A stretch of 64,000 nucleotides of DNA from NCBI GenBank assembly GCA_026710795.1, contig JAPOQK010000023.1, positions 1,525 through 65,524 on the forward strand. The letters are read 5' to 3'. Below the pieces are notes generated by a model. It ran no database searches, was not told the origin of the DNA, and saw only the letters and a program-made list of their open reading frames with translations. Position 1 is the first letter of the stretch; every line of letters begins with the position of its first letter. The position numbers and the translations under genes are program-made. Below, piece after piece: positions 524 to 46,988 of this stretch. The DNA is from Candidatus Poribacteria bacterium. GTDB taxonomy: Bacteria; Poribacteria; WGA-4E; WGA-3G.

Positions 524-3500
524 TTAAAATGTACTACCTATCCGAAAATAAAACGGAACTGTGAACACGTCGTCTAATGTGATAAGAGGAACTGCGTAAT
601 CTACTCCAAAAATTAATGGACCGAAGTTTAATCGTAATCCCATACCAACTGAAGACGGTATCCATTTGTACTCAATATCTCCTACGGAATCCCATACATT
701 ACCTGTATCAAAGAAGAGAACTCCATGAAATGGATTATAAATTGGAAAACGCATTTCGGTATTAAAAATGAATTGGACATTTCCACGATGTTTACCAGTA
801 CTATCTTCAGGACCGAGTCCTCTCTCCTCATATCCTCTCACTGTCGTACTACCACCTGCCCAGAATCTTTCAAAGGATATTAACTCTGCTTCATCGTTAT
901 TGTTTAATTGTAAACCGGGTGTATAACCGAACCGCAAGGCATTGGATAATACAAAGCCACGCACAGGTAATTGTCTATGATATTCTGTGTCTGATACAAA
1001 TTTTATAAATCCGCTTTCCCCACCTAAAACCCCACCAGCATATTCAACTGATACTTCGTTAAGCATGCCAGATATAGGGTTTATAGAAGGTATGCGATTA
1101 TCTTGTCTCCATAAGAAACTTAGACTACTAACTGTCGTAGATGGGTTCGATATCAACGGAATTACAGACGAAACTTTCTCAGTTGTATCCTTTAGATACC
1201 GATAGTTGTATTGCAGATTCAAACGGTGCGAACCAAGTAACTTTCTACTCAAAGTAAAACTACCTTGTAAAGCTCTGACATCGTCATCTTCTTCCAATTT
1301 GCGCCCCAGAAATTGTAAACTTCCACTTGTTCTGCCTATCAACCAAGGTTCAGTAAGTGTCGTATCATATATATATCCGCGCGTCCCCCATCTGCCACGC
1401 AAGTGAAATCGAATATTACGTTTGAATAGATTGAAATGACTAAATGCAATTGTACCACGTGGTCCATGAGACGTGCTATATCCAACACTGGCACCGTAGG
1501 TTCTTGGTAAGCGTTTCTGAAGTCGTATTGTGACATCGTTGACTTTCGGTTCAGGGAATGCCTCAACAACTTTATCATTATCACTTATGTTTACGGTATT
1601 ATTTACTTCACTTGTTGGAAAGTCGAACTTGGTTTGGATACCTGGTTCAAAAACTCTTGTGTTGTAAAGATTTTCGACAACAAGATCCAACTTTTCTGTC
1701 GTAAAAAGAGTTCCAGGTAAATTTGCAACTTCGCGATATAGAACCCTTGGAATAACTCCTGTGTCACCTGCAAAATTAAACTTCCCAAAGATAATCTGGT
1801 CACCTTCAACAATATCATATTGAAGAACACCATGTTCATAAACCGAAAGATGTTCCTTTTCTTGATCCAGTGTATAACGAGCGTTACCATCTACATCTTG
1901 GATACTCCATTCAGAACCAATACTTGTCAATGTACCTGAAAGTGAAAGACTGTGTTCACTAAATGCATCTCTCAATTTTTTAGGCAATGTGCCAGAATTA
2001 AGATTTCCTGAATAATCTCCTGAAATCTGAAAAACTGGGGTATCCACTTTATGTAAATATTCTGTTTTTTCTACTTTCGCATAGATATACCCTCGTTCCT
2101 GATATGCTTTTAATATGGCGTTTTCATACTTTTTCTGAACAAGACTGGCATTTGGTTCTGGTGGTTTACTTGGTAATGCATTGTAGAGAGTTACGTCATT
2201 AAGCACCCTGTTTCCCAGAAATTGACATCGGTTAATCATCTCTTTTGTAGGTTCAAAAATAAAGAGATTAATTGAGACTTCACCATCACGCTGTTTATTG
2301 TCGTTATGTTTAATTATTTTTGATGTTATTTCTACATTTCTATATCCTGCCTTTTCATACAAAATCTCTAATCTGTTAATATCCCTTTCAAGCGCAATGT
2401 TGGAAAAATAACGTTTTCTTATATGTCTTGAGAAGAAATTAACCGGCTTGGATTCCATTTCGCGAAGCAATTCTTTGTCGGAAAATGCCTCATTCCCTTC
2501 GAATTCTAATGTTGACACAAAATATCGGATACCATGTTTGACAGTAAATTCTATATGGAGAGGAGAATTCGTTAATGTCCTCGATTTTACTTGTGTTCCG
2601 TGATATCCCTTTGCCTCAAAATGAGTTCTAATTATATCTACCCAACGTGATCTATCGTTGATTAATTGTTCTATTTTTTCTCTCAACTGGTCTCTTTCTG
2701 GTACTACGGTTTCAATATCCAATATTGACAAAAACTGACGAAGAAAGGACTCATTTAGTATTGGTTTACCATTCTCATCCACAAAATCAAGTAAGAGTTG
2801 TTTACCTTCAATAATTTCGTATATCAATACACCACTATTGTGTTTAAAGGAAGACTTTATCACTGTACTTGGATAATACTTTTTTCTATATAGTTCTTGG
2901 ATTGATCTTATGTCTTCATTTACTGTAGATTTCCTATAAATCTGATCTACATTGAGATAACATACTTCCTTAATGTGTTCTGTGAATATCGATGAATTGC
3001 CAATAATTATAAATTCAGTAACATAAGTTGGTTGACCTATTTTAATTTGGTATGTGATGTTCCCTTTTTCAGGTATAGTATCTATTTCTACACTGACATC
3101 AAAATAACCGTTATCTGCACATATTGCTTTGATTGTATTAACATCATCATTAGCAATATACGGTATATATTTATTTCCTGCTTTTAATCTAATTGATGAA
3201 TCAATTACACGTCGAAGTTCATCTGAAACGTCCCCTACAATATTGACTTTTTGTATGTGCATCATCTTGGCTAATTCATATTTTAAAATAACACCTTCTG
3301 GAACAAAGGTAGTGTAAACATCAATTTGCGCATAGGTCTGTTCTGAATAGATAGAGGTAACGCTTTGCTGAACAGCATTCCGAGAAAACGGTGAACCTAT
3401 AGATATTTGAGTCAGTCTTAACAGTTTGCTGAGTAACTCTGTCTCTGTAACAGGAATTGCATCAATTACAAAATCAATCTTTACAATTGCATTCTGTTGA

Positions 3501-3661
3501 GAAGTTTCTATATTTGATTGATTGGAATTATTATCGTTGCAAAGGGCAGGAATTGTGTTTTGGTAAAAGAGGATAATACATAAAACAACAATTGGAATAC
3601 GACTCACAATACTAACAACAAAATTGGATTTCTGAGTATGTTTTTTTCCATGATTACACAT
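524..3661 (-). CDS. bamA: Outer membrane protein assembly factor BamA (Omp85 family), 1045 aa
   Basis: N-terminal signal/TM, long POTRA-like region, C-terminal beta-barrel with aromatic-rich terminal motif (...FYFRIGSTF) typical of Omp85. Sits directly downstream of the tamB-like gene. Confidence 0.8.
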   Translation of the reverse strand: MCNHGKKHTQKSNFVVSIVSRIPIVVLCIILFYQNTIPALCNDNNSNQSNIETSQQNAIVKIDFVIDAIPVTETELLSKLLRLTQISIGSPFSRNAVQQSVTSIYSEQTYAQIDVYTTFVPEGVILKYELAKMMHIQKVNIVGDVSDELRRVIDSSIRLKAGNKYIPYIANDDVNTIKAICADNGYFDVSVEIDTIPEKGNITYQIKIGQPTYVTEFIIIGNSSIFTEHIKEVCYLNVDQIYRKSTVNEDIRSIQELYRKKYYPSTVIKSSFKHNSGVLIYEIIEGKQLLLDFVDENGKPILNESFLRQFLSILDIETVVPERDQLREKIEQLINDRSRWVDIIRTHFEAKGYHGTQVKSRTLTNSPLHIEFTVKHGIRYFVSTLEFEGNEAFSDKELLREMESKPVNFFSRHIRKRYFSNIALERDINRLEILYEKAGYRNVEITSKIIKHNDNKQRDGEVSINLFIFEPTKEMINRCQFLGNRVLNDVTLYNALPSKPPEPNASLVQKKYENAILKAYQERGYIYAKVEKTEYLHKVDTPVFQISGDYSGNLNSGTLPKKLRDAFSEHSLSLSGTLTSIGSEWSIQDVDGNARYTLDQEKEHLSVYEHGVLQYDIVEGDQIIFGKFNFAGDTGVIPRVLYREVANLPGTLFTTEKLDLVVENLYNTRVFEPGIQTKFDFPTSEVNNTVNISDNDKVVEAFPEPKVNDVTIRLQKRLPRTYGASVGYSTSHGPRGTIAFSHFNLFKRNIRFHLRGRWGTRGYIYDTTLTEPWLIGRTSGSLQFLGRKLEEDDDVRALQGSFTLSRKLLGSHRLNLQYNYRYLKDTTEKVSSVIPLISNPSTTVSSLSFLWRQDNRIPSINPISGMLNEVSVEYAGGVLGGESGFIKFVSDTEYHRQLPVRGFVLSNALRFGYTPGLQLNNNDEAELISFERFWAGGSTTVRGYEERGLGPEDSTGKHRGNVQFIFNTEMRFPIYNPFHGVLFFDTGNVWDSVGDIEYKWIPSSVGMGLRLNFGPLIFGVDYAVPLITLDDVFTVPFYFRIGSTF

Positions 3662-3663
3662 TA

Positions 3664-6600
3664 TCAGAAACGCCGCTCCAATAGTTGGATGTCCACTCCA
3701 AAGTCACCCTTTTCATCACCTTCGACTTTGATTGACATATTATTAGGTAACGGATAGATAGCAATAATGTGGCGTTCCTCAGGATCAAAACCAGATGAGA
3801 CAGTGAAAGTGATTCCACCAATTGATCTTGATATCGAATTACCCGGTAATAGAAGTGCCAGTACTTCCGCTTCAGTAAGTGTTTCTGCTGTTGAAGAATT
3901 GAGTAACTCAGATATGTATGTAGGTTTATTATTCTGTAATGTACCCGTAATTGTTAACCTAACATTTACATCTGTTGTGCCTCCATCTTCAAGTAGAACA
4001 CCACGAATAGGATTTGGAAGTCTTAGTATAATATTTAAATCAGGATTAAATTCACGTGGGTTATGATTACGGATACTTGATCCTGGGACAATTTCGAAAA
4101 TCTGTGTGACAGTACTGATCCTTCCTTCAAGGAGGTATATATCCCCAACAAATATTGGTTCTTGAATCAGTCCTGTCAGACGTCCACTACCATTAATTTT
4201 AATGACGGTAGATCCACCAAGAGAGGATATGAATCTAATATTGTCTGGAATTTCAATACCAACATCTAACTGAAGGTTATTCAATATAGTATTACCAACT
4301 GCAAGTTCTACCTGACTTACAGTCGCACCACTAAACCACTCTTGTACGCTTTCCCAATTTTGTTCGTAATCACCCGAATGAATGATTATATCACCACTTA
4401 TGGTTAGATTAGACTGAATCGATTCATCTAAATTTCCATACAAGTGCAGATTATTGTCACCTGTACTGAGTGTTGCATTGTATTGACCGGGTTCAACAAA
4501 ACTGCAATTATCCATACTAACATTTAGATCCAAATAATTGAAACTAAACCAGTCAGAGTGAAGATATCCTGATGCGAAAAAATTACCATCGTTTAATTCA
4601 CCAAATATTGACACAATTTGCAGTTGGGATTCCGTTAATTCAATCTGAACATCTGTTTCACTTATGGAAATAGGAGAACCTTTAATTGAGAAAGATAATG
4701 CGTTGAATTCACCAATACCTGTAAGTTGTGGTTCATCAAGCGTTCCAAATATAGTGGCTGTGACCGAACCATCTCCCTGAACAGATTCAAATGTCGGTTC
4801 AATATCTGACAACATTCCTAACTCGTCCATCGTCAATGTACACTTGACTTCCATCGGGTCCATAACCGGTTCGACTTGCATATTAGAGAAAGAAATCAGA
4901 TAAGGAATATATCCTGAACAGGTAAGTTGATTTCCACCAGATTTTAGAAGTAAAGGGTTACTTTCCTCAATTAACCACTGTTTGGATCCACTGTTATAGT
5001 TGATTGCTCCATTGAATTCATCAATTTTTGCTTGATTAAGAGATAAGTTATCCCCTTCAAAACTAACAGTTATATTAGGTTCTGCATAAGTTCCTGTAAT
5101 ATTTATACCAGTTGATACTAAACCCCTTAGTTTATACGTATCAAGATTAGCTTCTGAAAAAAGCGGATCACAAATTGAAAGATCGAAATTGGTTAGTTTA
5201 AAGTTGAGTAGCATTTTTCCGCGCATATTCCATCTACCATAACTGCTGATTACCATTGGCAATATCGATTCATCTGCCTTGTTTGCGACTGTATTTTGTA
5301 GTTTTAGTTCAGAAACTGTGAATTCACCATTATTCAAATTTATCGGTATTGATGAAGGATTGACAAATCTGAAAAGTTGACCTAATGCAGTAAAACCACA
5401 GGAAAAATTATCAATCCTTAAATCAGCATAAGAATTCTGGCTAACAGCATCAAAGGTTAGTAATTTACTTATTTTAGGTAAAGGTATTCTGTCCCCATTT
5501 TCAAAAAAACTCTCAAACGGTATTATCAACTTCTCCAGAGTCGCGTTCACCGTTCCCTCTATATCCTGTATCAAATTACTTGATATATTCTGCTGTAATA
5601 ATGAACCAAGGGGGTATTCCTTTAATTTTAGACCATTTATCTCTAATCTTTTTGGTGTTAATCCATCCAATATTAACTGACTATGTTGGAATGGTAGAAG
5701 ACTTACCTCTCCTTCATCCAAATCAAATTGAAACTCGGTTAACTCAATAACGTCTTCTCCATTATTATGTTTACCAGCCTGAATTTGAATGATAACATTC
5801 TTAAATATTTGAGGTATATTTTTGTTACGAAGATGGGGGGCATGTACATATACATTTCCCTGTAAATGGAGCTTGGGCAAAGTGCCTGTTAATGCCAAAT
5901 TAATATCAGATACACCTTCAACTTCGGAAATTACATTATTAAGCCAAGGGAAAAAAGTGAGTGGTAATTCATTTCCACTGAGTGTGATATTTGTCGGCAC
6001 ATCTATGAATCTCTCAACAAACTTTTTATCCGATAAGGTCATATCAAATGGGATTATACCTGCAAGAGTCAGATCATTTTCATTGTCGGTTAGTTTTATT
6101 TCAAGTTTAATCTGCTTTTCTGTATATTGTATATTGCTATGCAACTCCAAAGGCATATCTATTTCATTCTGTTGTGAATGTTTTATTTTACCTTGTTGTA
6201 GGACCTCTACGGTTGGAGAGGTTAGGGTTCCACCAATTCGAGCGTCTACTGCAGTTTCAATTATTGGAGAAGTAATTTGGATAGGAAAATGGGAATTTAC
6301 ATTATTATTCTCTAAATTGAAGTCAATTCTTGAGTTATTGAATATATGAAAATCTTGAGTGTACAAATCCATTTCATCTATCTTACATTTAGCTGAAATA
6401 AGTTCAGACTTAATTCCTTTACCTTTTAAAGTAACAGACCCACCCAATGTACCTGTTAGAAAGGATTGGTCTTGACTGATAAATCTGACAAAATCATCTA
6501 CCTTCAATTTCTGAAAAGATACATCAAAATCATACATAATATCATCTCTTTCTTGAGTAGAAATTGATGTCTCACCAGTAATCTGGACACTTCCTTGACC

Positions 6601-9600
6601 AATATTTCCATTGATAACTAATTCCTGTATATTTACAGAATTCTTATTGATAGTAGTAAGAGCTTGGAATTGTTTCAATGTAATCGGTTCAGTCAACATA
6701 CCCAACTTTATGGGATAATTATCAATCGTATGAGCATTGAGATTAATGTTAGTTTCAAGAAAACTACCATTCAAGTTCACTGTTACATCCTGAACACCTT
6801 GAAGGAAAGTTGTATCTCCCAACATAAATTGGTCCAATGCATCTTCAGATAGAGCGTTTTTTACAATATTTGAAAACTGTGCCAAATCAAGATAATCGGA
6901 TATTATATCTATGTTTAGTCTTGACCTATAAAGGTCATTTTGATTGACAGAAACAGTACCACCTACCTGTACAGAATTATCCATTAAATTCAATTTAAAT
7001 GGTTTTATTGACAGAACGTGATTTTGATATGTCAATTGTCCATTTGTATTACTAAAACTAATATCCCCCAATTTAGTATCAACAACTAACGATGGTATTC
7101 TCCAACCTAATTCTACATTAGGATCACTTATCGTACCTGTCCATTTTAATTGATAATAACCACTTCCGGAAATTGGTATATCAAACACTTCACCTAAATG
7201 TGCAAGAACAATATTGTCATCTGAATTTGCTGAGATATCTACCTTCTCATTTTTCAAATTCAAACTACCGTTGAGATTAACGAATGACGTTTTTTCTCCA
7301 ACTACGGTCAGTGAACTATCAGCAATCGTAAGGATGTCATTCTCTAACAACATAAATATAGGCTTTGGATTTGTAAAGTTGACGGTTTTATACTGTAGTT
7401 GAGTATTGTTTATAGTTATTTCAACATCATAAGGATGAATAGGTTTATTGTTAGGATCCACAGAATTTGGCGTTAAATCAGTAAGTGTTCCTTCAACTTT
7501 AACGTTACCATCTGCGGAACCAGAAATGGTTTCAAGCCTTTTATCAAAAATACGGAGAATAGGTGTAACTGATATTCCATCACACTGCAATGTGAATTGA
7601 TAAGGATTATCTTTGATGTTGAAGATTTTTCCGTCAATCCTACCTGTGCCTTCAAATGCTTCACCTGTAAATTTAAAATAATCCAATTCTTCAGTATGTT
7701 TATTTCCCTCTACGAGGGTAGCAAACATAGTAGCATCACCGAGAGGATTTCCATCAAATGTCAAGTCAGAAAAGTCAAAGTCGACTTTAAAAACAAAATC
7801 TTCATTCAATTTCTGATACGAATCAACATGGATATCCAATTTTCCATCAAGCGGAAAGTCAGTTATGTCAGCAGCAAGGGCAACTTCTGCTAATCGAATA
7901 GGTTTGCCAACTTCATTCTTAAGACTAAAATTGAATGCCCCCTCATTCGTAACATGAGCATTAAAAATAACCAGTTGATTCCGTGTAGTAATTTCAAAAT
8001 TTGGAATAGTCAGGGAATAGTCGTCTATTTCAAGAGACATCATCACTGGATCTATATTTATCTCCCATGCATTACCAGATTCAATTGAAAATAGACCTTT
8101 ACCGTCGAGATGATCAATAAGGAACCCATATAAATTTAGTTCACCATTTATCACACCTTGTATAGGAAGTTCTTGCTGAAAAAAGAGTCTATTATAGTCA
8201 GAATCCAGAACAAGTGGGTCTGAAACTATGTTAAATGTTGCGGGTAGTTTATCCGCTAATTTGACATTCCCTTCAATAGAAACCTTTGTTTCTCCAACTT
8301 CACCTTTTTTAACAAGATGTGCATTTTCTATATATACAATTTTATCTGAATACCGAAAATACCCTGTTAATACGCCAAGTGAGATTGGTGTCATAAAGTC
8401 ACCATAAGAAGTTTCAGGGATTTCAACATATCCAGTAGCAGTCCAATCTTTCTTGATCTGTGCGGTAATACTTCCTATTCCTACGAAGGGAACAGTGTTT
8501 ACAATATCGCATATTTTGCCAAAATCAAAATTGTCTATTCTTAATTCAACCTGTTCCAATGAACCATTCATTTCAACAATTGCATCATCCAACATGCCAT
8601 TTACAGTTATTGTTGATCCTATGTTCTCTTCCAAATTAATGTTACAATTCAGAGATGAATCTTTCAATAAAACAGGTTCTGTCTGTCCATTTGCCTGTAA
8701 AGATGATTCTGATAGTTCAATATTACTTTCCAGATGAAATTCTCCTTCTGCGCCACCATTAATCTGTGCTGTTCCGTTCAATATGCCAGATTTAACCTGC
8801 GGTGCATCTTTAGGAATTTCTACTAACATTGATAAAAGAGAATTGAGTTCCATATCTGAAATTTGTAAATTACTTTCATATTTGATCGGATATTTGAAGA
8901 ATTGCTGTAGTCTATCAAAAAGATTACCTTGTATGCTACTATCTAATAAGACTTTTCCATTACCAGACAATGTGCCACCAGCGATATGCATATTGATTTT
9001 TTCTAAAATTACATTCGGTTCACTGTCTAAATTCAAAATAGTATTGATATTTAAATCAGTTATTTCAATCTTCCTTGATTTAAACTCAGAATTATCTGTT
9101 GATGCACCTATGTTGTGTTGGACAGTCAGTGCTTCTGAAGTGACGGTTAGATTACCTTGTAAAGTAGAATCTGTTCCGCTAAAATCCAATGTTACCTTAC
9201 CTACACCTGCAAGTTGAGTTTGTTCATCCAAAAAATATTGCACATCTGCGGCATCAAATGTTATTTGTAAACCTGCATTCCACAGTCCAGTACTCCAGTT
9301 TCTTTTATATTGATTAACAACTATTAAGGAGTTTCCAATTTGTAATTGAAGTGGTTGAAGTTCCTCACTATTCGTAGCTAGTGCAAACTTCACACCATGA
9401 ATCCGTTCAATTGGCATCTCCACACCATTAAGTGTGATGTTACCTTTACCTATAGAGAAACTACCTGAATGATCCCATTTATCTAACTTACCACTTAACT
9501 TAACCTCTATTTCTGGAATACTCACTTCAAATTGCTTTTCCTTATCAACAAAGTATATCTCACCACCATTGACTTTAAAGTTGGATATTGCAAACGCGAA

Positions 9601-10038
9601 ATCATTATCAGATTCTGTTGCAGAATCTGATTCAGGTTTCTGTAACAAATGCATTAGGTTTACCTGTCCATCCGACTGACGAACAACGACAACTTTTGGA
9701 CCTTCAATTTCAAACTCAGTAACAAGGAATTTGCGTCTAAGTAAACCAAGAATGTTGTATCTAAGAATTATCTGTTCTGTTGAGAGGATAGGTAGTTCTG
9801 TGGATTTTGTATCTACTATAGAAAAGTCATCAACGACAACACCTGTGAGGACATTTCCCCGCAATTTTTGTATTTTTACTTCATAATCTTCGTTAATTTG
9901 GTCTTCTAATGCTGTTATTAGACGTTCTCTGATATAATTTTCAAGAAAATAATCTGAACTTATAAAAAAATATCCTCCAATTCCACATAGCAAAATGAAG
10001 AGTGATATTGAAATAAACAGGATTTTGCGTCGTGTCAT
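3664..10038 (-). CDS. Giant TamB/AsmA-family translocation-and-assembly-module protein (2124 aa) with N-terminal membrane anchor
   Basis: N-terminal TM helix (ILFISISLFILLCGIGGYFFI), very long beta-rich repetitive body, C-terminal DUF490-like region. Stop is 2 nt before bamA, so the two are probably co-transcribed. Confidence 0.65.
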   Translation of the reverse strand: MTRRKILFISISLFILLCGIGGYFFISSDYFLENYIRERLITALEDQINEDYEVKIQKLRGNVLTGVVVDDFSIVDTKSTELPILSTEQIILRYNILGLLRRKFLVTEFEIEGPKVVVVRQSDGQVNLMHLLQKPESDSATESDNDFAFAISNFKVNGGEIYFVDKEKQFEVSIPEIEVKLSGKLDKWDHSGSFSIGKGNITLNGVEMPIERIHGVKFALATNSEELQPLQLQIGNSLIVVNQYKRNWSTGLWNAGLQITFDAADVQYFLDEQTQLAGVGKVTLDFSGTDSTLQGNLTVTSEALTVQHNIGASTDNSEFKSRKIEITDLNINTILNLDSEPNVILEKINMHIAGGTLSGNGKVLLDSSIQGNLFDRLQQFFKYPIKYESNLQISDMELNSLLSMLVEIPKDAPQVKSGILNGTAQINGGAEGEFHLESNIELSESSLQANGQTEPVLLKDSSLNCNINLEENIGSTITVNGMLDDAIVEMNGSLEQVELRIDNFDFGKICDIVNTVPFVGIGSITAQIKKDWTATGYVEIPETSYGDFMTPISLGVLTGYFRYSDKIVYIENAHLVKKGEVGETKVSIEGNVKLADKLPATFNIVSDPLVLDSDYNRLFFQQELPIQGVINGELNLYGFLIDHLDGKGLFSIESGNAWEINIDPVMMSLEIDDYSLTIPNFEITTRNQLVIFNAHVTNEGAFNFSLKNEVGKPIRLAEVALAADITDFPLDGKLDIHVDSYQKLNEDFVFKVDFDFSDLTFDGNPLGDATMFATLVEGNKHTEELDYFKFTGEAFEGTGRIDGKIFNIKDNPYQFTLQCDGISVTPILRIFDKRLETISGSADGNVKVEGTLTDLTPNSVDPNNKPIHPYDVEITINNTQLQYKTVNFTNPKPIFMLLENDILTIADSSLTVVGEKTSFVNLNGSLNLKNEKVDISANSDDNIVLAHLGEVFDIPISGSGYYQLKWTGTISDPNVELGWRIPSLVVDTKLGDISFSNTNGQLTYQNHVLSIKPFKLNLMDNSVQVGGTVSVNQNDLYRSRLNIDIISDYLDLAQFSNIVKNALSEDALDQFMLGDTTFLQGVQDVTVNLNGSFLETNINLNAHTIDNYPIKLGMLTEPITLKQFQALTTINKNSVNIQELVINGNIGQGSVQITGETSISTQERDDIMYDFDVSFQKLKVDDFVRFISQDQSFLTGTLGGSVTLKGKGIKSELISAKCKIDEMDLYTQDFHIFNNSRIDFNLENNNVNSHFPIQITSPIIETAVDARIGGTLTSPTVEVLQQGKIKHSQQNEIDMPLELHSNIQYTEKQIKLEIKLTDNENDLTLAGIIPFDMTLSDKKFVERFIDVPTNITLSGNELPLTFFPWLNNVISEVEGVSDINLALTGTLPKLHLQGNVYVHAPHLRNKNIPQIFKNVIIQIQAGKHNNGEDVIELTEFQFDLDEGEVSLLPFQHSQLILDGLTPKRLEINGLKLKEYPLGSLLQQNISSNLIQDIEGTVNATLEKLIIPFESFFENGDRIPLPKISKLLTFDAVSQNSYADLRIDNFSCGFTALGQLFRFVNPSSIPINLNNGEFTVSELKLQNTVANKADESILPMVISSYGRWNMRGKMLLNFKLTNFDLSICDPLFSEANLDTYKLRGLVSTGINITGTYAEPNITVSFEGDNLSLNQAKIDEFNGAINYNSGSKQWLIEESNPLLLKSGGNQLTCSGYIPYLISFSNMQVEPVMDPMEVKCTLTMDELGMLSDIEPTFESVQGDGSVTATIFGTLDEPQLTGIGEFNALSFSIKGSPISISETDVQIELTESQLQIVSIFGELNDGNFFASGYLHSDWFSFNYLDLNVSMDNCSFVEPGQYNATLSTGDNNLHLYGNLDESIQSNLTISGDIIIHSGDYEQNWESVQEWFSGATVSQVELAVGNTILNNLQLDVGIEIPDNIRFISSLGGSTVIKINGSGRLTGLIQEPIFVGDIYLLEGRISTVTQIFEIVPGSSIRNHNPREFNPDLNIILRLPNPIRGVLLEDGGTTDVNVRLTITGTLQNNKPTYISELLNSSTAETLTEAEVLALLLPGNSISRSIGGITFTVSSGFDPEERHIIAIYPLPNNMSIKVEGDEKGDFGVDIQLLERRF

Positions 10039-15895: not shown

Positions 15896-16942
15896 TTATT
15901 CCACATCAATGTGTGCTTCATCTCCTGCGATCACTTCACCAATAACGGAGGCTTCTGGACAATCAGCAGCATGTAGTTCTTTTAAAGCTGCATCAGCATT
16001 TTCAGCTGGAAGGGCAAATAATAGTCCACCAGATGTTTCAGCCTCCATCATAATATGTCGCAACTCTTTCGATACTGTTGAATTAAATGAGACTTTATCC
16101 GCAAGGAACTTTGTATTTGCTGTATAGGCTTGGGTGTATGTATTCTTTGCAACCAAATCGGGAGCATCATCAAAGTAAGGGATAGATGAACTATTAAATC
16201 GTAACCGTATATTATTACCTTCCGCCATTTCAGAGGCATGTCCTAACAACCCATAACCTGTGACATCGGTGCATGCTGATACACCATGTTTTAACATTAC
16301 CTCAGACGCAGATGCATTGAGTCGTGTCATCGATTCAACCAATGTTGGTAGAATTTCATCACTTATTTTATTGAATTTAATTCCCGTTGTAAGTATTCCT
16401 ATACCAAGTTTTTTCGTTAATATAAGGACATCACCAATTCGTGCTCCGAAATTTTTTACATATCTATCAGGATGAACAATGCCTGTTACAGCCAAGCCAT
16501 ACATCAGTTCAGGGGATTCCACTGTATGTCCACCCACAAGTGCAGCACCGGATTCAATTGCTTTTTCTGCTCCACCCCTGACAATATCACCCAGAATCGA
16601 TATTTCAAGATCTTCTTTTGGCCAGCACGTGATATTTAAGGCTGTTTTTGGAATACCACCCATGCTATATACATCGCTGAGTGAATTCGTTGCTGCAATT
16701 GCACCGAATGTATATGGGTCATCAACAATAGGTGTAAAGTAATCAACCGTATTGACAAGTGCAAGGTCATCAGAAATGCGGTATATTCCCGCGTCATCCG
16801 AGGTTTCAGTACCTACAAGTAGATTTGGGTCAGTAGATTTGGGAAGACAGTCTAAAATGTGTGATAGCTCACCCGGAGCCAATTTTGATGCTCAGCCAGC
16901 ACATTTAACTGTTTCTGTAAGGCGAATCTTTTTCTTTTTCAT
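15896..16942 (-). CDS. selD: Selenide, water dikinase SelD, a selenoprotein with in-frame UGA (Sec) at 16894..16892; true gene extends 60 nt upstream of the ORF-track call
   Basis: The track ORF (start 16882, TTG) is preceded in frame by ATG(16942)-AAA-AAG-AAA-AAG-ATT-CGC-CTT-ACA-GAA-ACA-GTT-AAA-TGT-GCT-GGC-TGA-GCA-TCA-AAA-TTG. This reads MKKKKIRLTETVKCAG-U-ASKLAPGELSHIL, which aligns residue-for-residue with E. coli SelD IRLTQYSHGAG-C17-GCKISPKVLETIL. The UGA sits at the catalytic Cys17 position. The rest of the protein is a canonical AIR-synthase-like SelD. Confidence 0.85.
16866..16880 (-). promoter_or_regulatory. Candidate SECIS-like hairpin 12 nt downstream of the selD UGA (GGCUC-CGGGU-GAGCU)
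   Basis: mRNA UGA-GCAUCAAAAUU-GGCUCCGGGUGAGCU: a 5-bp stem (one G-U) with a 5-nt G-rich loop. It begins 12 nt after UGA, the same spacing as the hairpin in the UGSC selenoprotein gene. Small, so low confidence. Confidence 0.3.
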
Positions 16943-17071
16943 TAGTATATGTAATGTAATTTTATAAGTGAATCAGGTTGAATGTATTAGAATAACAGGT
17001 TAATGTTTGTATGGTTTAAAATCCTATATAATTCGATACTTTATACATGAATTTTATTATGTATTTTAACT

Positions 17072-18794: not shown

Positions 18795-20248
18795 ATGCAT
18801 AACATTGCTATCGGTGGAATAATGCATGAATCAAACACATTCAATAACACATTAACTGATATTGATGACTTTTCATGTATTCTTGGTGACGATATATTAT
18901 CATTTTGGAAGGATTCACATCATGAGGTAGGTGGATTTGTCCACGGTTTAGAAGTATTGGGTTTCTCTCCATATCCTACGTTAATGGCAGCTGCAACACC
19001 TGCTGGTCCCGTATCTGATTCTGCCTTCGATACACTCACTAATATGTTGATACAACAACTAAAAGCAATTCCAATTTTGGACGGTTTGCTGCTGGCACTA
19101 CATGGTGCAATGGTTGTTGAGAGTTATCCAGATGGTGATGGAGAAGTGTTGCGAAGACTACGAGAAATATATGGACAATCTTTCCCTATAGTTGTAACAC
19201 TTGACCACCATGCGAATGTATCTCAACAAATGGTTGAACTATCAACAGCACTTATTATTTACAAGACAAATCCACATATTGATCAAAAACAACGTGGGAT
19301 ACAAGCAACAGAATTGATGATAAGTATTCTCAAAGAGGAAGTATCACCTACTCAGATACTTGCTAAACCACCAATGATTCTCAATATCCTATATCAGAAC
19401 ACAAGTGCAGAACCTATGTCATCCATAATAAATTTTGCTAATCAAATGGAGAACGATGACAACGTACTTGTTGCTAATGTTGCAGCGGGGTACCCTTATG
19501 CAGATGTTCCAGAGGTAGGTCCATCCTTCGTTGTTGTGACAAACCACGATTCTCATCTTGCCCAGTTAAACGCAGATAAGTTATCAAGTATATTGTGGAA
19601 TACACGTGACAAACTTACGCTTGATTTACCTGATGCTGCCGAAGCAGTCCAACAAGCAATTCATTCTAATGAACAACCTGTGATTCTTGTAGAAATGGGT
19701 GATAACATTGGTGGTGGTTCACCAGGGATAGTACTATCATTCTGACAGAATTGATACGACAGAAAGCATCTGGATTTGTAGTTGTTCTGTATGATCCTAA
19801 TTGTGTTCAAACCTGTATACAGGAAGGTATTAGCAATGAAGTTTCCTTACAGGTTGGTGGAAAAACAGACAAACAACATGGTAAACCTGTTCCAATACAA
19901 GGAACAGTCCGCCTAATTCATGATGGACATTTTATTGAGACAGAACCTCGGCACGGAGGACAGAAGTATCATAATCAAGGTTTGACAGCTGTTGTTGCGA
20001 TAGAAGACGCATTTGTTGTTTTGACAAGTAAACGACAAACCCCATTTAGTCTACAACAACTGCTGAGTCTCGGAATCAACCCAGTTGAAATGCGTATTAT
20101 TGTCGTCAAAGCTGCCATCGCATATCGCGCTGCTTATGAACCAATTGCTGGTAAGATCATTGAGGTAGATACACCTGGGTTGACAGCAGTAAATCCGCAA
20201 CATTTTACATATCAAAATGTGCGAAAACCCCTATTTCCTCTCGATTGA
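18795..20248 (+). pseudogene. MlrC/M81-family metallopeptidase (microcystinase C-like) interrupted by a -1 frameshift at a G-run (19725..19727)
   Basis: ORF 18795..19745 (MHNIAIGGIMHESNTFN…, MlrC N-domain) and ORF 19751..20248 (MlrC C-domain) are consecutive. Reading ccaggg|atagt… in the +2 frame gives PG-DSTIILTELIRQKASGFVVV, continuous with the second ORF. One extra G at 19725..19727 would restore a ~485-aa protein. Confidence 0.65.
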
Positions 20249-21058: not shown

Positions 21059-21592
21059 ATGACTATGGAAAATATCACATTACTTGATCCCACCTCTCAA
21101 GGTGAAACGACTGAGAAATATCTTGCTCCACGACTTGAGAAATTAGATGGAAAAGTCATGGGAATTCTGGATATTACAAAGAATGGTAGCGATATATTCC
21201 TTGACCGTGTTGAAGAATTGTTCTGTGACCGATTTGAGATATCCGAAGTTGTCCGTATAAAGAAACCGACATTTGCACGACCAGCACCAACCGAACTACT
21301 CGTGGATCTTGCAGAACGCGTTGATTTTGTCATTGAAGGACTTGCTGACTGAGGTTCCTGTATATCGTGCAGTATGCACGATGGATCAGTTTTAGAGGAA
21401 ATGGGTGTTCCGAGTATAGCAATATGTTCAGAGGTGTTTTTCTCTGCAGGAAAAGTTCAGGCACGTGTTCTTGGATATAATGATTTAGAACCTCTCACCG
21501 TTGTCCATCCCATCCAAAGTCTTACTTCAAAACAGATACAAGAACGTGCTGACAGTGTTGTTGATAAAATCATAGAACGCCTGATAAAATAA
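21059..21592 (+). CDS. UGSC-motif selenoprotein: single gene spanning two ORF-track calls joined by in-frame UGA at 21350..21352
   Basis: ORFs 20996..21352 and 21374..21592 are in the same frame and separated only by TGA: …VIEGLAD-U-GSCISCSMHDGSVLEEMGV…. The UGA is followed by GGT TCC TGT, giving an exact U-G-S-C motif (the motif after which the 'UGSC family (seleno)protein' is named). Likely start is ATG 21059 (MTMENITLL) with GGAG 5 nt upstream. Confidence 0.6.
21364..21382 (+). promoter_or_regulatory. SECIS-like hairpin (AUCGUGC-AGUAU-GCACGAU) starting 12 nt after the UGA of the UGSC selenoprotein gene
   Basis: Perfect 7-bp stem with 5-nt loop inside the coding sequence. Spacing from UGA matches the bacterial SECIS arrangement and the selD hairpin in this window. 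Confidence 0.4.
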
Positions 21593-37295: not shown

Positions 37296-38645
37296 ATGAG
37301 TATTACACAATTCACATTGGAAGAGGTACGCTGCTTCGGAGAACGACAAACTCTTGAAATTCGACCTTTGACCTTTTTAGTCGGAGAAAACAGTACTGGC
37401 AAAACTACTGCCCTCGCTTGTTTCCATGTGTTGGTTAACTATTTGCGTGGAAGAGGAGTAGATTTCAATGAAAAGCCTTCAAATCCTCATCCTTATTCAT
37501 TGGGAACCTTTAAGGATATCGTCAGAAACAGTAATAATAAAGAAAAAGCCTTTAAACTTGGTTTTACTTCTAAATACGCTAACGATGATATAGAATGGAC
37601 AGTTGAATTTATTGAAAGGCAGGAAGCAGTTGAACCTAGTATCAGTTTAGTATCCATTGTATTTCCAAATGGTGAAGTCGTTTTTAAAATCAAAGACTCA
37701 TTGGAAAAACCCTTTGGTATGGAATCCTTTGATAGTAATAGACACCAATATCATTTAGTTTGTAACTCTAACATAATTTCTCAATTTCCACTGAGTCATA
37801 TCTTGGATAATTTGGATCATCTACCAATAAATTTATTTAAAGAAGACTTACAAAGTGCAATGGCACTTGTAAAATATTTGAAGAGTCTTACTAATCCTAT
37901 AGAAGTCATGGCTGAACCATGGGATTTGTGGTACAATCTTTCTATATTAAGTACATCACCAATACGTTCCCGTCCTGAACGCACCTACGATCCAATGAGA
38001 GAGTTTAACGATCCTGAAGGAAGCGATATTCCCCTGTTGTTAATGCGATTAGATGCAGCACAAAAAAATGAATGGGAAGGAATAAAAAAACACCTAGTAA
38101 AATTTGGTAAGAGTTCAGGCTTATTTCAGAATATAAGAATCAAAAAACTAGGACATTCACTGGGTGATCCATTCCAATTGCAATTCAAAGTCAGAGGTCC
38201 TTCTTCTAATATCATGGATGTGGGTTACGGTGTAAGTCAAATTTTACCTGTTTTGGTTCAAGTATTATATCCTAGTATTTCTCGTAACAATAAACGCACT
38301 TATTCAATGCCGTCCTACGCTTTACTACAACAACCTGAAGTGCACCTACACCCAAAAGCACAAGCAGAATTTTCTTCTCTGTTAGCAAAATTGGCAAACC
38401 AGGGTAACCAGTCATTCATAGTTGAAACACACAGTGATTATATGATTGATCGGGCACGGATTGAAATCAGAAATGGTAACATCAAACCTGAAGATGTATC
38501 GCTAATCTACTTTGAACCGAAAGGAAATATTGTCAAAGTACATAATATAGGTTTTGATGAAATGGCGAATCTAACTAATGTGCCAAATCATTATAGACAG
38601 TTTTTCCTTAATGAATCTAAACGACTCATGGGATTTGAGGGTTAA
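37296..38645 (+). CDS. ABC-type AAA family ATPase (AAA_15/AAA_21-like; DUF3696-type C-terminal region)
   Basis: 449 aa. Walker A (LVGENSTGKTT) near the N-terminus. Long insert. Walker B/D-loop LLQQPEVHLHP and H-loop ETHSD near the C-terminus, typical of the OLD/AbiL/Septu-like ATPase clade. Confidence 0.7.
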   Translation: MSITQFTLEEVRCFGERQTLEIRPLTFLVGENSTGKTTALACFHVLVNYLRGRGVDFNEKPSNPHPYSLGTFKDIVRNSNNKEKAFKLGFTSKYANDDIEWTVEFIERQEAVEPSISLVSIVFPNGEVVFKIKDSLEKPFGMESFDSNRHQYHLVCNSNIISQFPLSHILDNLDHLPINLFKEDLQSAMALVKYLKSLTNPIEVMAEPWDLWYNLSILSTSPIRSRPERTYDPMREFNDPEGSDIPLLLMRLDAAQKNEWEGIKKHLVKFGKSSGLFQNIRIKKLGHSLGDPFQLQFKVRGPSSNIMDVGYGVSQILPVLVQVLYPSISRNNKRTYSMPSYALLQQPEVHLHPKAQAEFSSLLAKLANQGNQSFIVETHSDYMIDRARIEIRNGNIKPEDVSLIYFEPKGNIVKVHNIGFDEMANLTNVPNHYRQFFLNESKRLMGFEG

Positions 38646-38646
38646 T

Positions 38647-39075
38647 ATGTGTGCGATTTTGGATACAAATTCTTTCCATAAATTCAAAGACAGCACAGAT
38701 GAAGATATGGAAGAGGTATGGAGGTGGTTGGAAAGAAGAAACGGTAAAATAGTCTACTCAAATATCCCTAAATTTGAAGAGGAATGGTTTAAAGGTGGAA
38801 TGCATCCTTTGAGAGACCAACTTCTACGCTCTGGACATCTCAAGTTGGTATCTAAGGGTGTCCAAGAAAAGTCAGATGAACTTATAGGAAACATTAAATC
38901 AGACGATAATCATATTATTGCGTTGGCAATAATTGCTGGTGTAAAAATTCTCATTACCAACCGTAAGGGAGACAAAGATTTAATCACAGATTTTAAAAGT
39001 AGCGAATTTGTTAATGGGAAGGTATATACAACAAAAAAGCATGCTCACTTACTAAAGAAAGACACTTGTCCTTAA
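38647..39075 (+). CDS. Small PIN-like domain protein translationally coupled to the upstream ATPase
   Basis: ATG at 38647 lies 1 nt after the ATPase stop (TAAtATG). MCAILDTNSF… (PIN strand 1 with Asp), acidic stretch DEDMEE…, then DNHIIALAIIAGVKILITNRKGDKDLITDF resembles the PIN hhT-N…DF motif. The track's 38578 start gives an unlikely N-terminal extension overlapping the ATPase. Confidence 0.45.
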   Translation: MCAILDTNSFHKFKDSTDEDMEEVWRWLERRNGKIVYSNIPKFEEEWFKGGMHPLRDQLLRSGHLKLVSKGVQEKSDELIGNIKSDDNHIIALAIIAGVKILITNRKGDKDLITDFKSSEFVNGKVYTTKKHAHLLKKDTCP

Positions 39076-46361: not shown

Positions 46362-46988
46362 TCATCTGTGCGCAACAACAATAAAACCTGTTAGACCAGT
46401 GAGAAGAATTTGAAAACCTGTTTGATAAAATAGAATAAAGAATGGTTGGCAAAGAAACAATAATCCCAGACCTATTAATCCAATAGAAATCCGTTCACAC
46501 AGAACTTTCTGTGTGTTGACAATGGTAAAAACAATGATTCCCGGCAGAAGTAGGTAAAGCGATATACCACTAAGTGAAGGTACAACTGTTTGATATAAGA
46601 ATACTATACCTAACAGGATGCATATTGTTGATGCAAATGTCGCGATACGGGTTGATGTTGTAGTCATCCCAAATGCAATTGAACTTGCAAACAATAGGTG
46701 AAATGCCGATCCTTGAAGAATAGTAGGTACAGGAAAAAACAAAAAACTATACCCTATTCCTATACCGAGTAAAGAAATAATAACGATTCGCTGCTTATTG
46801 TTATAAACTAAACTTGCATGTATCGCTGCGATACTCAGTATTACAAATGAAATTCCTCTAAGTAAGACATCAATTTTTGTTATTAATTTTGGTAATGATG
46901 TGATGTTTTTGAGTTCTAAATAGAGAAAAAGGATACCAATAAATAACAATCCGATTGAAATGAGGTGTCTACTTCTTTGTTGTGTCAT
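46362..46988 (-). CDS. Hypothetical polytopic membrane protein
   Basis: 208 aa, ~6 hydrophobic helices. No recognisable motif. Confidence 0.4.
   Translation of the reverse strand: MTQQRSRHLISIGLLFIGILFLYLELKNITSLPKLITKIDVLLRGISFVILSIAAIHASLVYNNKQRIVIISLLGIGIGYSFLFFPVPTILQGSAFHLLFASSIAFGMTTTSTRIATFASTICILLGIVFLYQTVVPSLSGISLYLLLPGIIVFTIVNTQKVLCERISIGLIGLGLLFLCQPFFILFYQTGFQILLTGLTGFIVVAHR

Follow-up and report, generated by a model that had tools for sequence, protein, structure and literature searches.

Selenide, water dikinase (SelD) with selenocysteine (Sec) at the catalytic position is the second most widespread selenoprotein family of prokaryotes and has been catalogued since the 1990s. 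In bacteria, formate dehydrogenase FdhA and SelD constitute the two most widespread selenoproteins (PMC1794560). Sec is encoded by 19% of the prokaryotic SelD genes, always at the identical position (PMC4561486), and Sec-type SelD is known in, e.g., Pasteurellales, Campylobacter, Deltaproteobacteria, and Clostridia (PMC4561486, PMC1794560, PMC13188914). The bacterial SECIS (bSECIS) models described for selD have one stem stacked on another and an apical loop of minimal size (PMC4561486 supplement S6).

The selD gene considered here is located on the minus strand of a 64,000-nt stretch of a Candidatus Poribacteria contig. This whole stretch is referred to as the window, and all coordinates are window positions. 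With the Sec-type selD genes of other bacteria the locus shares a UGA at the single conserved catalytic site of the N-terminal loop, a full-length SelD protein, a stem-loop approximately 10 nt past the UGA inside the coding region, and a gene model that is routinely truncated by annotation. It differs from them in that Candidatus Poribacteria were not found in the above surveys, with zero mentions in PMC13188914, and in that the poribacterial hairpin is unusually small and flanked by A/U (4 invariant pairs, −6.4 kcal/mol, 16-nt spacing). Very probably, this selD of a Candidatus Poribacteria bacterium starts at ATG 16942, and its UGA codon 17 is recoded to Sec via a downstream stem-loop. Due to the fact that a UGA at the catalytic-Cys codon is well known for many bacterial selD genes, the finding as such is an ordinary one. 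It leaves the knowledge of SelD and of Sec decoding unchanged, and its chief value is an annotation fix for the poribacterial SelD clade.

The Cys-type SelD of E. coli (3u0o) and the window SelD have the motif IRLT-x5-AG-[C/U]-x2-K including Lys20 as well as a length of 347–348 aa in common, whereas Cys17 and Cys19 of the E. coli enzyme are opposed by the predicted Sec17 and by Ser19 in the window SelD, which furthermore has Cys14. SelD of Aquifex aeolicus (2yye, 2zod), a natural Sec enzyme that was crystallised with Cys, resembles the window SelD in the motif G-[C/U]-A-[AS]-K-[LV]-x-P-G-[ED]-L around and after the Sec site, but belongs to another phylum and has an N-terminus that is a few residues shorter. 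On the RNA level, the selD element resembles the SECIS of E. coli fdhF and the bSECIS consensus of Zhang and Gladyshev (2005), as relayed by PMC13188914, in being a stem-loop inside the ORF with the loop 16–37 nt past the UGA, and in a G at loop position 1 or 2 that precedes a G or U. The selD stem is far shorter and weaker, and −7.5 kcal/mol or below is reached only when the lower stem and the UGA are counted in.

Gene layout, product, and truncated gene models

The features of the coding region are as follows.

15896–16942, minus strand: complete selD reading frame with the UGA at codon 17 and the TAA stop; 348 aa (M1...U17...E348), recognised by SelD equivalog HMMs
16940–16942, minus strand: true start codon ATG; first start past an in-frame stop, ATG in 18 of 18 sequences, drop of identity upstream
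16892–16894, minus strand: UGA, codon 17, predicted Sec codon, equivalent to Cys17 of E. coli SelD; ungapped alignment to 3u0o, TGA in 18 of 18 Poribacteria sequences
16883–16885, minus strand: codon 20, AAA, Lys equivalent to E. coli SelD Lys20, 5' of the miscalled start; alignment, Lys in 18 of 18 sequences
16880–16882, minus strand: TTG (Leu21), the start according to the mechanical ORF finder and gene callers, not the real start; codon 21 is variable in relatives

Direct reading and translation of the minus strand place the ATG at 16942–16940, the TGA (codon 17) at 16894–16892, and the TAA at 15898–15896. The codons AAA AAG AAA AAG ATT CGC CTT ACA GAA ACA GTT AAA TGT GCT GGC are situated between ATG and TGA, while the TGA is followed by GCA TCA AAA and then by the TTG at 16882–16880 (codon 21), from where the frame remains open to the TAA. 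The readthrough frame thus read comprises 348 sense or Sec codons (349 with the stop), and its peptide begins with MKKKKIRLTETVKCAG-U-ASK-LAPGELSHIL. An in-frame stop is located 11 codons 5' of ATG 16942, which is the first start codon after that stop. At this locus the six-frame ORF listing contains only a 328-aa TTG ORF (15896..16882). Since the mechanical ORF begins at TTG 16882 while the frame opens at ATG 16942, the true start is situated 60 nt upstream. This is where the original prediction had placed it, and its coordinates and the length of 348 aa proved to be exact. A promoter scan 5' of selD gave 4 sites compared to 5.8 expected, and the promoter-like site beside the ATG is uninformative due to its end being only 2 nt before the ATG.

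For profile scoring, the UGA was replaced by Cys in the readthrough product. The 348-aa product reaches 360.7 bits with NCBIfam TIGR00476 (selD equivalog, cut-off 125) and 327.3 bits with NCBIfam NF002098 (SelD equivalog, cut-off 299, residues 1–345). Using phmmer against the PDB, the best match is the selenide, water dikinase 2yye (E = 3e-69), and E. coli SelD 3u0o is aligned over residues 2–339 with E = 8e-69. Judged by sequence, the product of the window gene is a SelD, i.e., a selenide, water dikinase. Residues 2–31 of the product pair with residues 2–31 of 3u0o with zero gaps, and A15-G16-U17-A18-S19-K20 of the window SelD are opposed to A15-G16-C17-G18-C19-K20. Due to this ungapped alignment, U17 corresponds to the Cys17 position and K20 to the Lys20 position, and the UGA is indeed found at the catalytic Cys codon as originally claimed. 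Except for a single sequence, all Poribacteria sequences (17 of 18) contain Cys14, three residues ahead of Sec (C-A-G-U). Mutant studies of the Stadtman laboratory reportedly showed that, besides Cys17, Lys20 of E. coli SelD is also essential. Cys17 of this enzyme binds selenide, and its C17S variant is catalytically inactive (PMC3956282). A start at Leu21 would yield a product lacking both the Cys17- and the Lys20-equivalent residue.

The database search considered the best 120 matches among 5.8 billion clustered proteins. For all 120 of these best matches the query coverage is at most 94%, and all begin at codon 21 or later, in accordance with the expectation that automated annotation truncates selD. 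The called products are of varied start, with lengths of 328, 322, 320, 319, 316, 308, 307, and 283 aa. A 99% identical protein (P0001) is called from codon 21 and begins with MAPGEL, and an NCBI entry of 320 aa designated [quoted passage not shown] (P0008) begins with MLENLPKS. Since the retrieved SelD entries are devoid of the predicted catalytic Sec17 and of Lys20, the deposited models depict a dead enzyme. The window selD is very probably a selenoprotein gene with an ATG start at 16942 that is truncated by gene callers. In its corrected form, it would mark the Poribacteria, which comprise sponge-associated and free-living members, as selenocysteine users, and other selenoprotein genes of these genomes, e.g., the UGSC-family gene 4.4 kb off, are likely mis-called as well.

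Conservation and coding constraint

Scanning one genome per species resulted in 17 loci, all of which belong to Candidatus Poribacteria MAGs, with 78–89% identity and matching query residues 1 to 347 or 348. The ATG, the TGA at codon 17, and a length of 349 codons are found in all 17 loci (18 of 18 with the window). Gene order is kept in the relatives as well, with MlrC-like, HD, AP_endonuc_2, selD, phosphoribosyltransferase, YmdB, xseA, and xseB genes. In the window, the MlrC-like gene shows an apparent frameshift at about 19727. Four more distant loci of 67–76% identity, reached via truncated database proteins, have an unchanged layout, as do loci from a metagenome scan, and the ATG frame is also kept and under purifying selection in 9 more distant loci, with L019–L026 showing the layout of the window gene.

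In the 18 Poribacteria sequences, codons 2–16 exhibit a pS of 0.592, a pN of 0.062, and a pN/pS of 0.105, compared to 0.608, 0.069, and 0.113 for codons 34–348. Variable columns in codons 2–16 are distributed over codon positions 1, 2, and 3 with 5, 4, and 14, respectively. Mean pairwise nucleotide identity is 82% from ATG to TGA versus 40% in the 48 nt 5' of the ATG. Codons 2–16 evolve as coding sequence, with a constraint indistinguishable from that of the rest of the gene.

Across the 18 Poribacteria sequences, codon 21 occurs as CTT (11), TTG (4), or CTG (3), and the TTG start is not conserved. Two observations had been named beforehand as speaking against the upstream start, namely a lack of conservation of the ATG frame in close relatives and homologs of this lineage that uniformly start at the downstream site. 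The former is opposed by the frame being kept in 17 of 17 close relatives, and the latter by the frequent CTT at codon 21 as well as by the scattered called starts. Codon 17 was typed in 101 sequences, comprising the window together with related genomic and metagenomic loci, and reads TGA (73), TGT (20), or TGC (8).

The stem-loop downstream of the UGA

Two structures, one enclosing the other, were considered in the region following the UGA.

16865–16881, minus strand: putative bacterial SECIS apical hairpin UGGCUC-CGGGU-GAGCUA; 6 bp, from folding and comparison
16852–16888, minus strand: possible two-tier SECIS, in which a lower A/U stem pairs 16888–16882 with 16858–16852, with 1 nt bulged on the 3' side; MFE of the 45–60 nt after the UGA

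The mRNA 3' of the UGA reads GCAUCAAAAU-UGGCUC-CGGGU-GAGCUA, with one of the 6 pairs being G-U. The loop CGGGU comprises 5 nt (16875–16871), and the distance from UGA to loop is exactly 16 nt (GCAUCAAAAUUGGCUC). The hairpin GGCUC-CGGGU-GAGCU of the original prediction is present and begins at the 12th nt past the UGA (16880), and a flanking U-A pair extends the stem to 6 bp. In foldings of the 35–40 nt 3' of the UGA, the hairpin 16881–16865 is the MFE structure with −6.4 kcal/mol. Longer folds add the lower A/U stem (−6.6 to −6.7 kcal/mol), and forcing the hairpin with the UGA included, plus the lower stem, gives −7.6 kcal/mol. For 60 nt including the UGA, a different MFE structure was obtained, the energy of which is no better than that of shuffles (z = 0.40). 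The UGAGC/GCUC pairing of this 60-nt MFE structure was rejected, since the downstream-only fold, the compensatory change, and the synonymous constraint described below favour 16881–16865.

The bSECIS consensus comprises a loop of 3–9 nt, an upper stem of 4–16 bp, a UGA-to-loop distance of 16–37 nt, an MFE of at most −7.5 kcal/mol, and a G at loop position 1, 2, or both, after which G or U is the usual nucleotide (PMC13188914). Loop, stem, loop G, and spacing of the selD hairpin lie within this model, the spacing being at the lower limit, while the energy is −6.4 kcal/mol for the hairpin alone and crosses −7.5 kcal/mol only with lower stem and UGA (−7.6 kcal/mol). The loop follows the pattern C-G-G-G-N, with G at loop positions 2–4 in 26 of 26 sequences. 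Due to the energy alone not being beyond chance, the support for the selD hairpin is comparative. The hairpin pointed out in the original prediction has its support in the comparison, with 4 core pairs in 26 of 26 sequences, and turned out to be marginal in thermodynamic terms.

RNAalifold with 15 Poribacteria sequences resulted in 4 invariant pairs (GCUC/GAGC) and no covariation, and therefore more divergent sequences were brought in. In all of the 26 distinct sequences the core pairs 16879–16876 with 16870–16867 are paired. Of the core pairs, three are invariant, and the second (17–27), elsewhere C-G, is A-U in 5 of 26 sequences. The stem reads GAUC/GAUC in the clade with D-P-G-D-L (L019, L020, and L024–L026). 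This compensatory change probably represents a single evolutionary event, and two amino acids change with it. Over the 26 sequences, the covariation score is 0.122 versus 0.082 in shuffled alignments, with 0 of 500 shuffles being as high, and only 2 pairs change on both sides, a number matched by 328 of 500 shuffles. The lower helix is 79.7% paired over the 26 sequences and includes one pair in which both nucleotides vary, and the helix consists mostly of A-U pairs dictated by Lys and Ile-Leu codons. The lower A/U stem enclosing the apical hairpin might perhaps constitute an extended SECIS.

Synonymous variation in the same region is reduced. All 18 sequences share GCT at codon 22, CCG at codon 23, and GAG at codon 25, i.e., the synonymous positions of the stem are frozen, whereas all four bases are used at the third position of Gly24, which is the 3' nucleotide of the loop. 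In the 18 Poribacteria sequences, pS amounts to 0.371 in codons 18–33 versus approximately 0.60 elsewhere in the gene. When synonymous entropy is taken over 339 ten-codon windows, the eight lowest values all belong to windows beginning at codons 16–23; the minimum is 0.251, while the mean is 0.587 (z = −3.3, permutation p = 0.018).

The short hairpin 16881–16865 is probably the SECIS core and would then act as the SelB-binding element. Alternatively, the gene encodes a Sec-type SelD but the SECIS is another or larger fold, either two-tier with the A/U stem or a structure further 3', an explanation that we regard as rather unlikely. It is favoured by the short hairpin falling short of the −7.5 kcal/mol threshold, by the universal conservation of only 4 pairs, and by the two-stemmed architecture of the published selD bSECIS models (PMC4561486 supplement S6). 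Moreover, a high-GC SelD-Sec clade displays two consecutive hairpins, of which the second (GUN loop, approximately 33 nt past the UGA) fits the consensus better. In Poribacteria-type sequences, however, no such second downstream hairpin occurs, the synonymous constraint is centred on codons 16–30 and hence on the short hairpin and its flanks, the compensatory change sits in the short hairpin, and the loop of the latter has the G-G expected of bSECIS loops. [quoted passage not shown] If true, searches with the usual bSECIS filters might systematically overlook selenoprotein genes of low-GC Poribacteria, and, should the minimal hairpin alone recruit SelB, it would rank with the smallest functional SECIS elements of bacteria.

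Probable selenocysteine use and rival readings of the UGA

A second gene with an in-frame UGA is situated in the window.

21059–21592, plus strand: UGSC-family selenoprotein gene, start uncertain (20996, 21059, or 21065); recognised by NF041046, 4.4 kb from selD

Its in-frame TGA (21350–21352) lies within the motif U-G-S-C, and the product scores 150.6 bits with NF041046, “UGSC family (seleno)protein” (cut-off 125). The hairpin of this gene, AUCGUGCA-GUA-UGCACGAU at 21363–21383, is strong with −14 kcal/mol. In both the UGSC gene and selD the stem starts 10–11 nt past the UGA, the equal spacing being one that had been pointed out in the original prediction. Its further statement that the window derives from a Sec-using lineage agrees well with the profile match of this UGSC-family gene. 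Except for selD and the UGSC gene, no candidate of a window-wide scan for in-frame TGA next to Cys looks real, and the remaining candidates were dismissed as off-frame noise.

Genes of the Sec machinery were searched for in the window. ARAGORN predicted no tRNA genes in the 64 kb, hence no tRNA-Sec, Rfam models, applied to the entire window with gathering thresholds, gave zero matches, and Pfam domains of SelA and SelB are absent among the 48 long ORFs. Since selA, selB, and selC are not located in the window, Sec decoding is a matter of deduction, and we infer that the three genes are encoded elsewhere in the genome. Poribacteria have been listed among the phyla with Sec-type group 4 [NiFeSe] hydrogenases (PMC13582414). 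A reassignment of UGA (code 4 or 25) was rejected, as 11 of the 48 long ORFs terminate with TGA, among them xseA and the YmdB gene beside selD. Due to UGA being an ordinary stop in these ORFs, the readthrough of selD must be local and signal-dependent.

Following this reading, translation would begin at ATG 16942, and UGA codon 17 would be recoded to selenocysteine by SelB and Sec-tRNA(Sec). SelB would be recruited by the small mRNA stem-loop 16881–16865 with the loop CGGGU, possibly stabilised by the lower A/U stem. The resulting 348-aa enzyme would carry Sec17 and Lys20 in its N-terminal glycine-rich loop, corresponding to Cys17 and Lys20 of E. coli, and is predicted to make selenophosphate from selenide and ATP.

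Three other readings of the UGA have to be weighed against this one. A genuine stop, implying either a truncated SelD from TTG 16882 or a later codon, or a pseudogene, with the upstream 16 codons as leader or non-coding sequence, is in line with the ORF listing and every public gene call, and also with the thermodynamically unremarkable SECIS hairpin. Nevertheless, it is highly improbable, since the upstream codons are under equal purifying selection (pN/pS 0.105) and encode the N-terminal loop motif of SelD, aligned with E. coli residues 2–16, and since codon 21 as CTT is no start codon in 11 of 18 sequences. Furthermore, translation from codon 21 would leave out the residues equivalent to Cys17 and Lys20, with Cys17Ser of E. 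coli being inactive (PMC3956282), and the TGA is retained in 18 of 18 sequences although several single-base changes would abolish a stop. Readthrough of the UGA may also insert a residue other than Sec, with a tRNA-Sec-like tRNA(Cys) delivering Cys or near-cognate suppression yielding Trp, Cys, or Arg. Natural recoding of UGA to Cys by tRNA-Sec-like tRNAs occurs in some bacteria, and such readthrough would match the window being devoid of visible Sec machinery. Against it stand the UGSC (seleno)protein-family gene, likewise with an in-frame UGA and a canonical hairpin, the Sec-type hydrogenases reported for Poribacteria (PMC13582414), and the identity of codon 17 with the Sec site of all Sec-type SelDs (PMC4561486), which together make a non-Sec residue very unlikely. 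Hence, UGA 17 of selD is presumably decoded as Sec rather than as another residue. A sequencing or assembly error that turned TGT or TGC into TGA is favoured by the apparent frameshift elsewhere in the window (MlrC-like gene, about 19727), but this explanation deserves hardly any credence, since the TGA recurs at codon 17 of 17 Poribacteria genomes that were assembled independently, and 55 other related loci carry it too.

Sequence elements flanking the selD UGA

The SelD-Sec clade L028-L094, which originates from soil and sediment metagenomes, is characterized by a high GC content and the motif AAG-U-AAKLGPADL, and its UGA codon is followed by two hairpins in succession. The first of these (UCGGC-CCN-GCCGA) matches the putative SECIS of the window selD in position, and the second carries a GUN loop approximately 33 nt 3' of the UGA. 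In case of L102, the sole close Cys-type relative seen (TGC), the second hairpin is without a G-containing loop and the pairing is lost.

A cysteine precedes the Sec residue of the window SelD.

16901-16903, minus strand: selD codon 14 (Cys), three residues N-terminal to Sec

Together with Sec17, Cys14 forms a C-x-x-U motif (VKCAGU). Across Poribacteria genomes, codon 14 specifies Cys in 17 out of 18 cases and Ser in one, and the residue corresponding to Cys19 of E. coli SelD is Ser in the window protein. Cys14 is a candidate selenenylsulfide partner.

Upstream of selD, a promoter-like site was found.

16944-16972, minus strand: sigma-70-like match (TTCACT, 17-nt spacer, TATACT), ending 2 nt 5' of the selD ATG

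Promoter-like sites showed no enrichment compared to shuffled sequences. Neither the window nor its relatives show a Shine-Dalgarno-like sequence 5' of the ATG, and it is conceivable that the selD mRNA is leaderless or carries a short leader.

The UGSC-family selenoprotein gene

~21059-21592, plus strand: UGSC-family selenoprotein gene; in-frame TGA at 21350-21352; NF041046 score above the cut-off

The UGA lies in the motif U-G-S-C-x-S-C. The hairpin that follows it (21363-21383) is strong, comprises 9 bp and a GUA loop, and sets in 10-11 nt 3' of the UGA. For the start codon there are three candidates, 20996, 21059, and 21065.

The MlrC-like gene and further ORFs

18795-20248, plus strand: MlrC/M81-like peptidase gene (DUF1485 and MlrC_C), frame junction near 19727

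While the more distant relatives L021 and L022 encode this peptidase in one ORF of 487-488 aa, the window contains two ORFs in different frames. Since tblastn assigned two segments of the L022 protein, residues 1-314 and residues 315-436, to neighbouring frames with a junction at ~19727, a 1-nt frameshift is indicated at this position, representing either an assembly error or a pseudogene.

524-3661, minus strand: Omp85/POTRA protein, 1045 aa
3664-10038, minus strand: 2124-aa ORF immediately upstream, with an N-terminal DUF748 as sole match

These two genes (524-10038) resemble a TamB/TamA-like translocation-assembly pair.

38578-39075, plus strand: 165-aa ORF
46362-46988, minus strand: 208-aa ORF

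Neither has a Pfam match at E <= 1e-5. The 165-aa ORF shares an overlap with an AAA_15/AAA_21 (AbiEii-like) ATPase gene (37296-38645), at the end of that gene.
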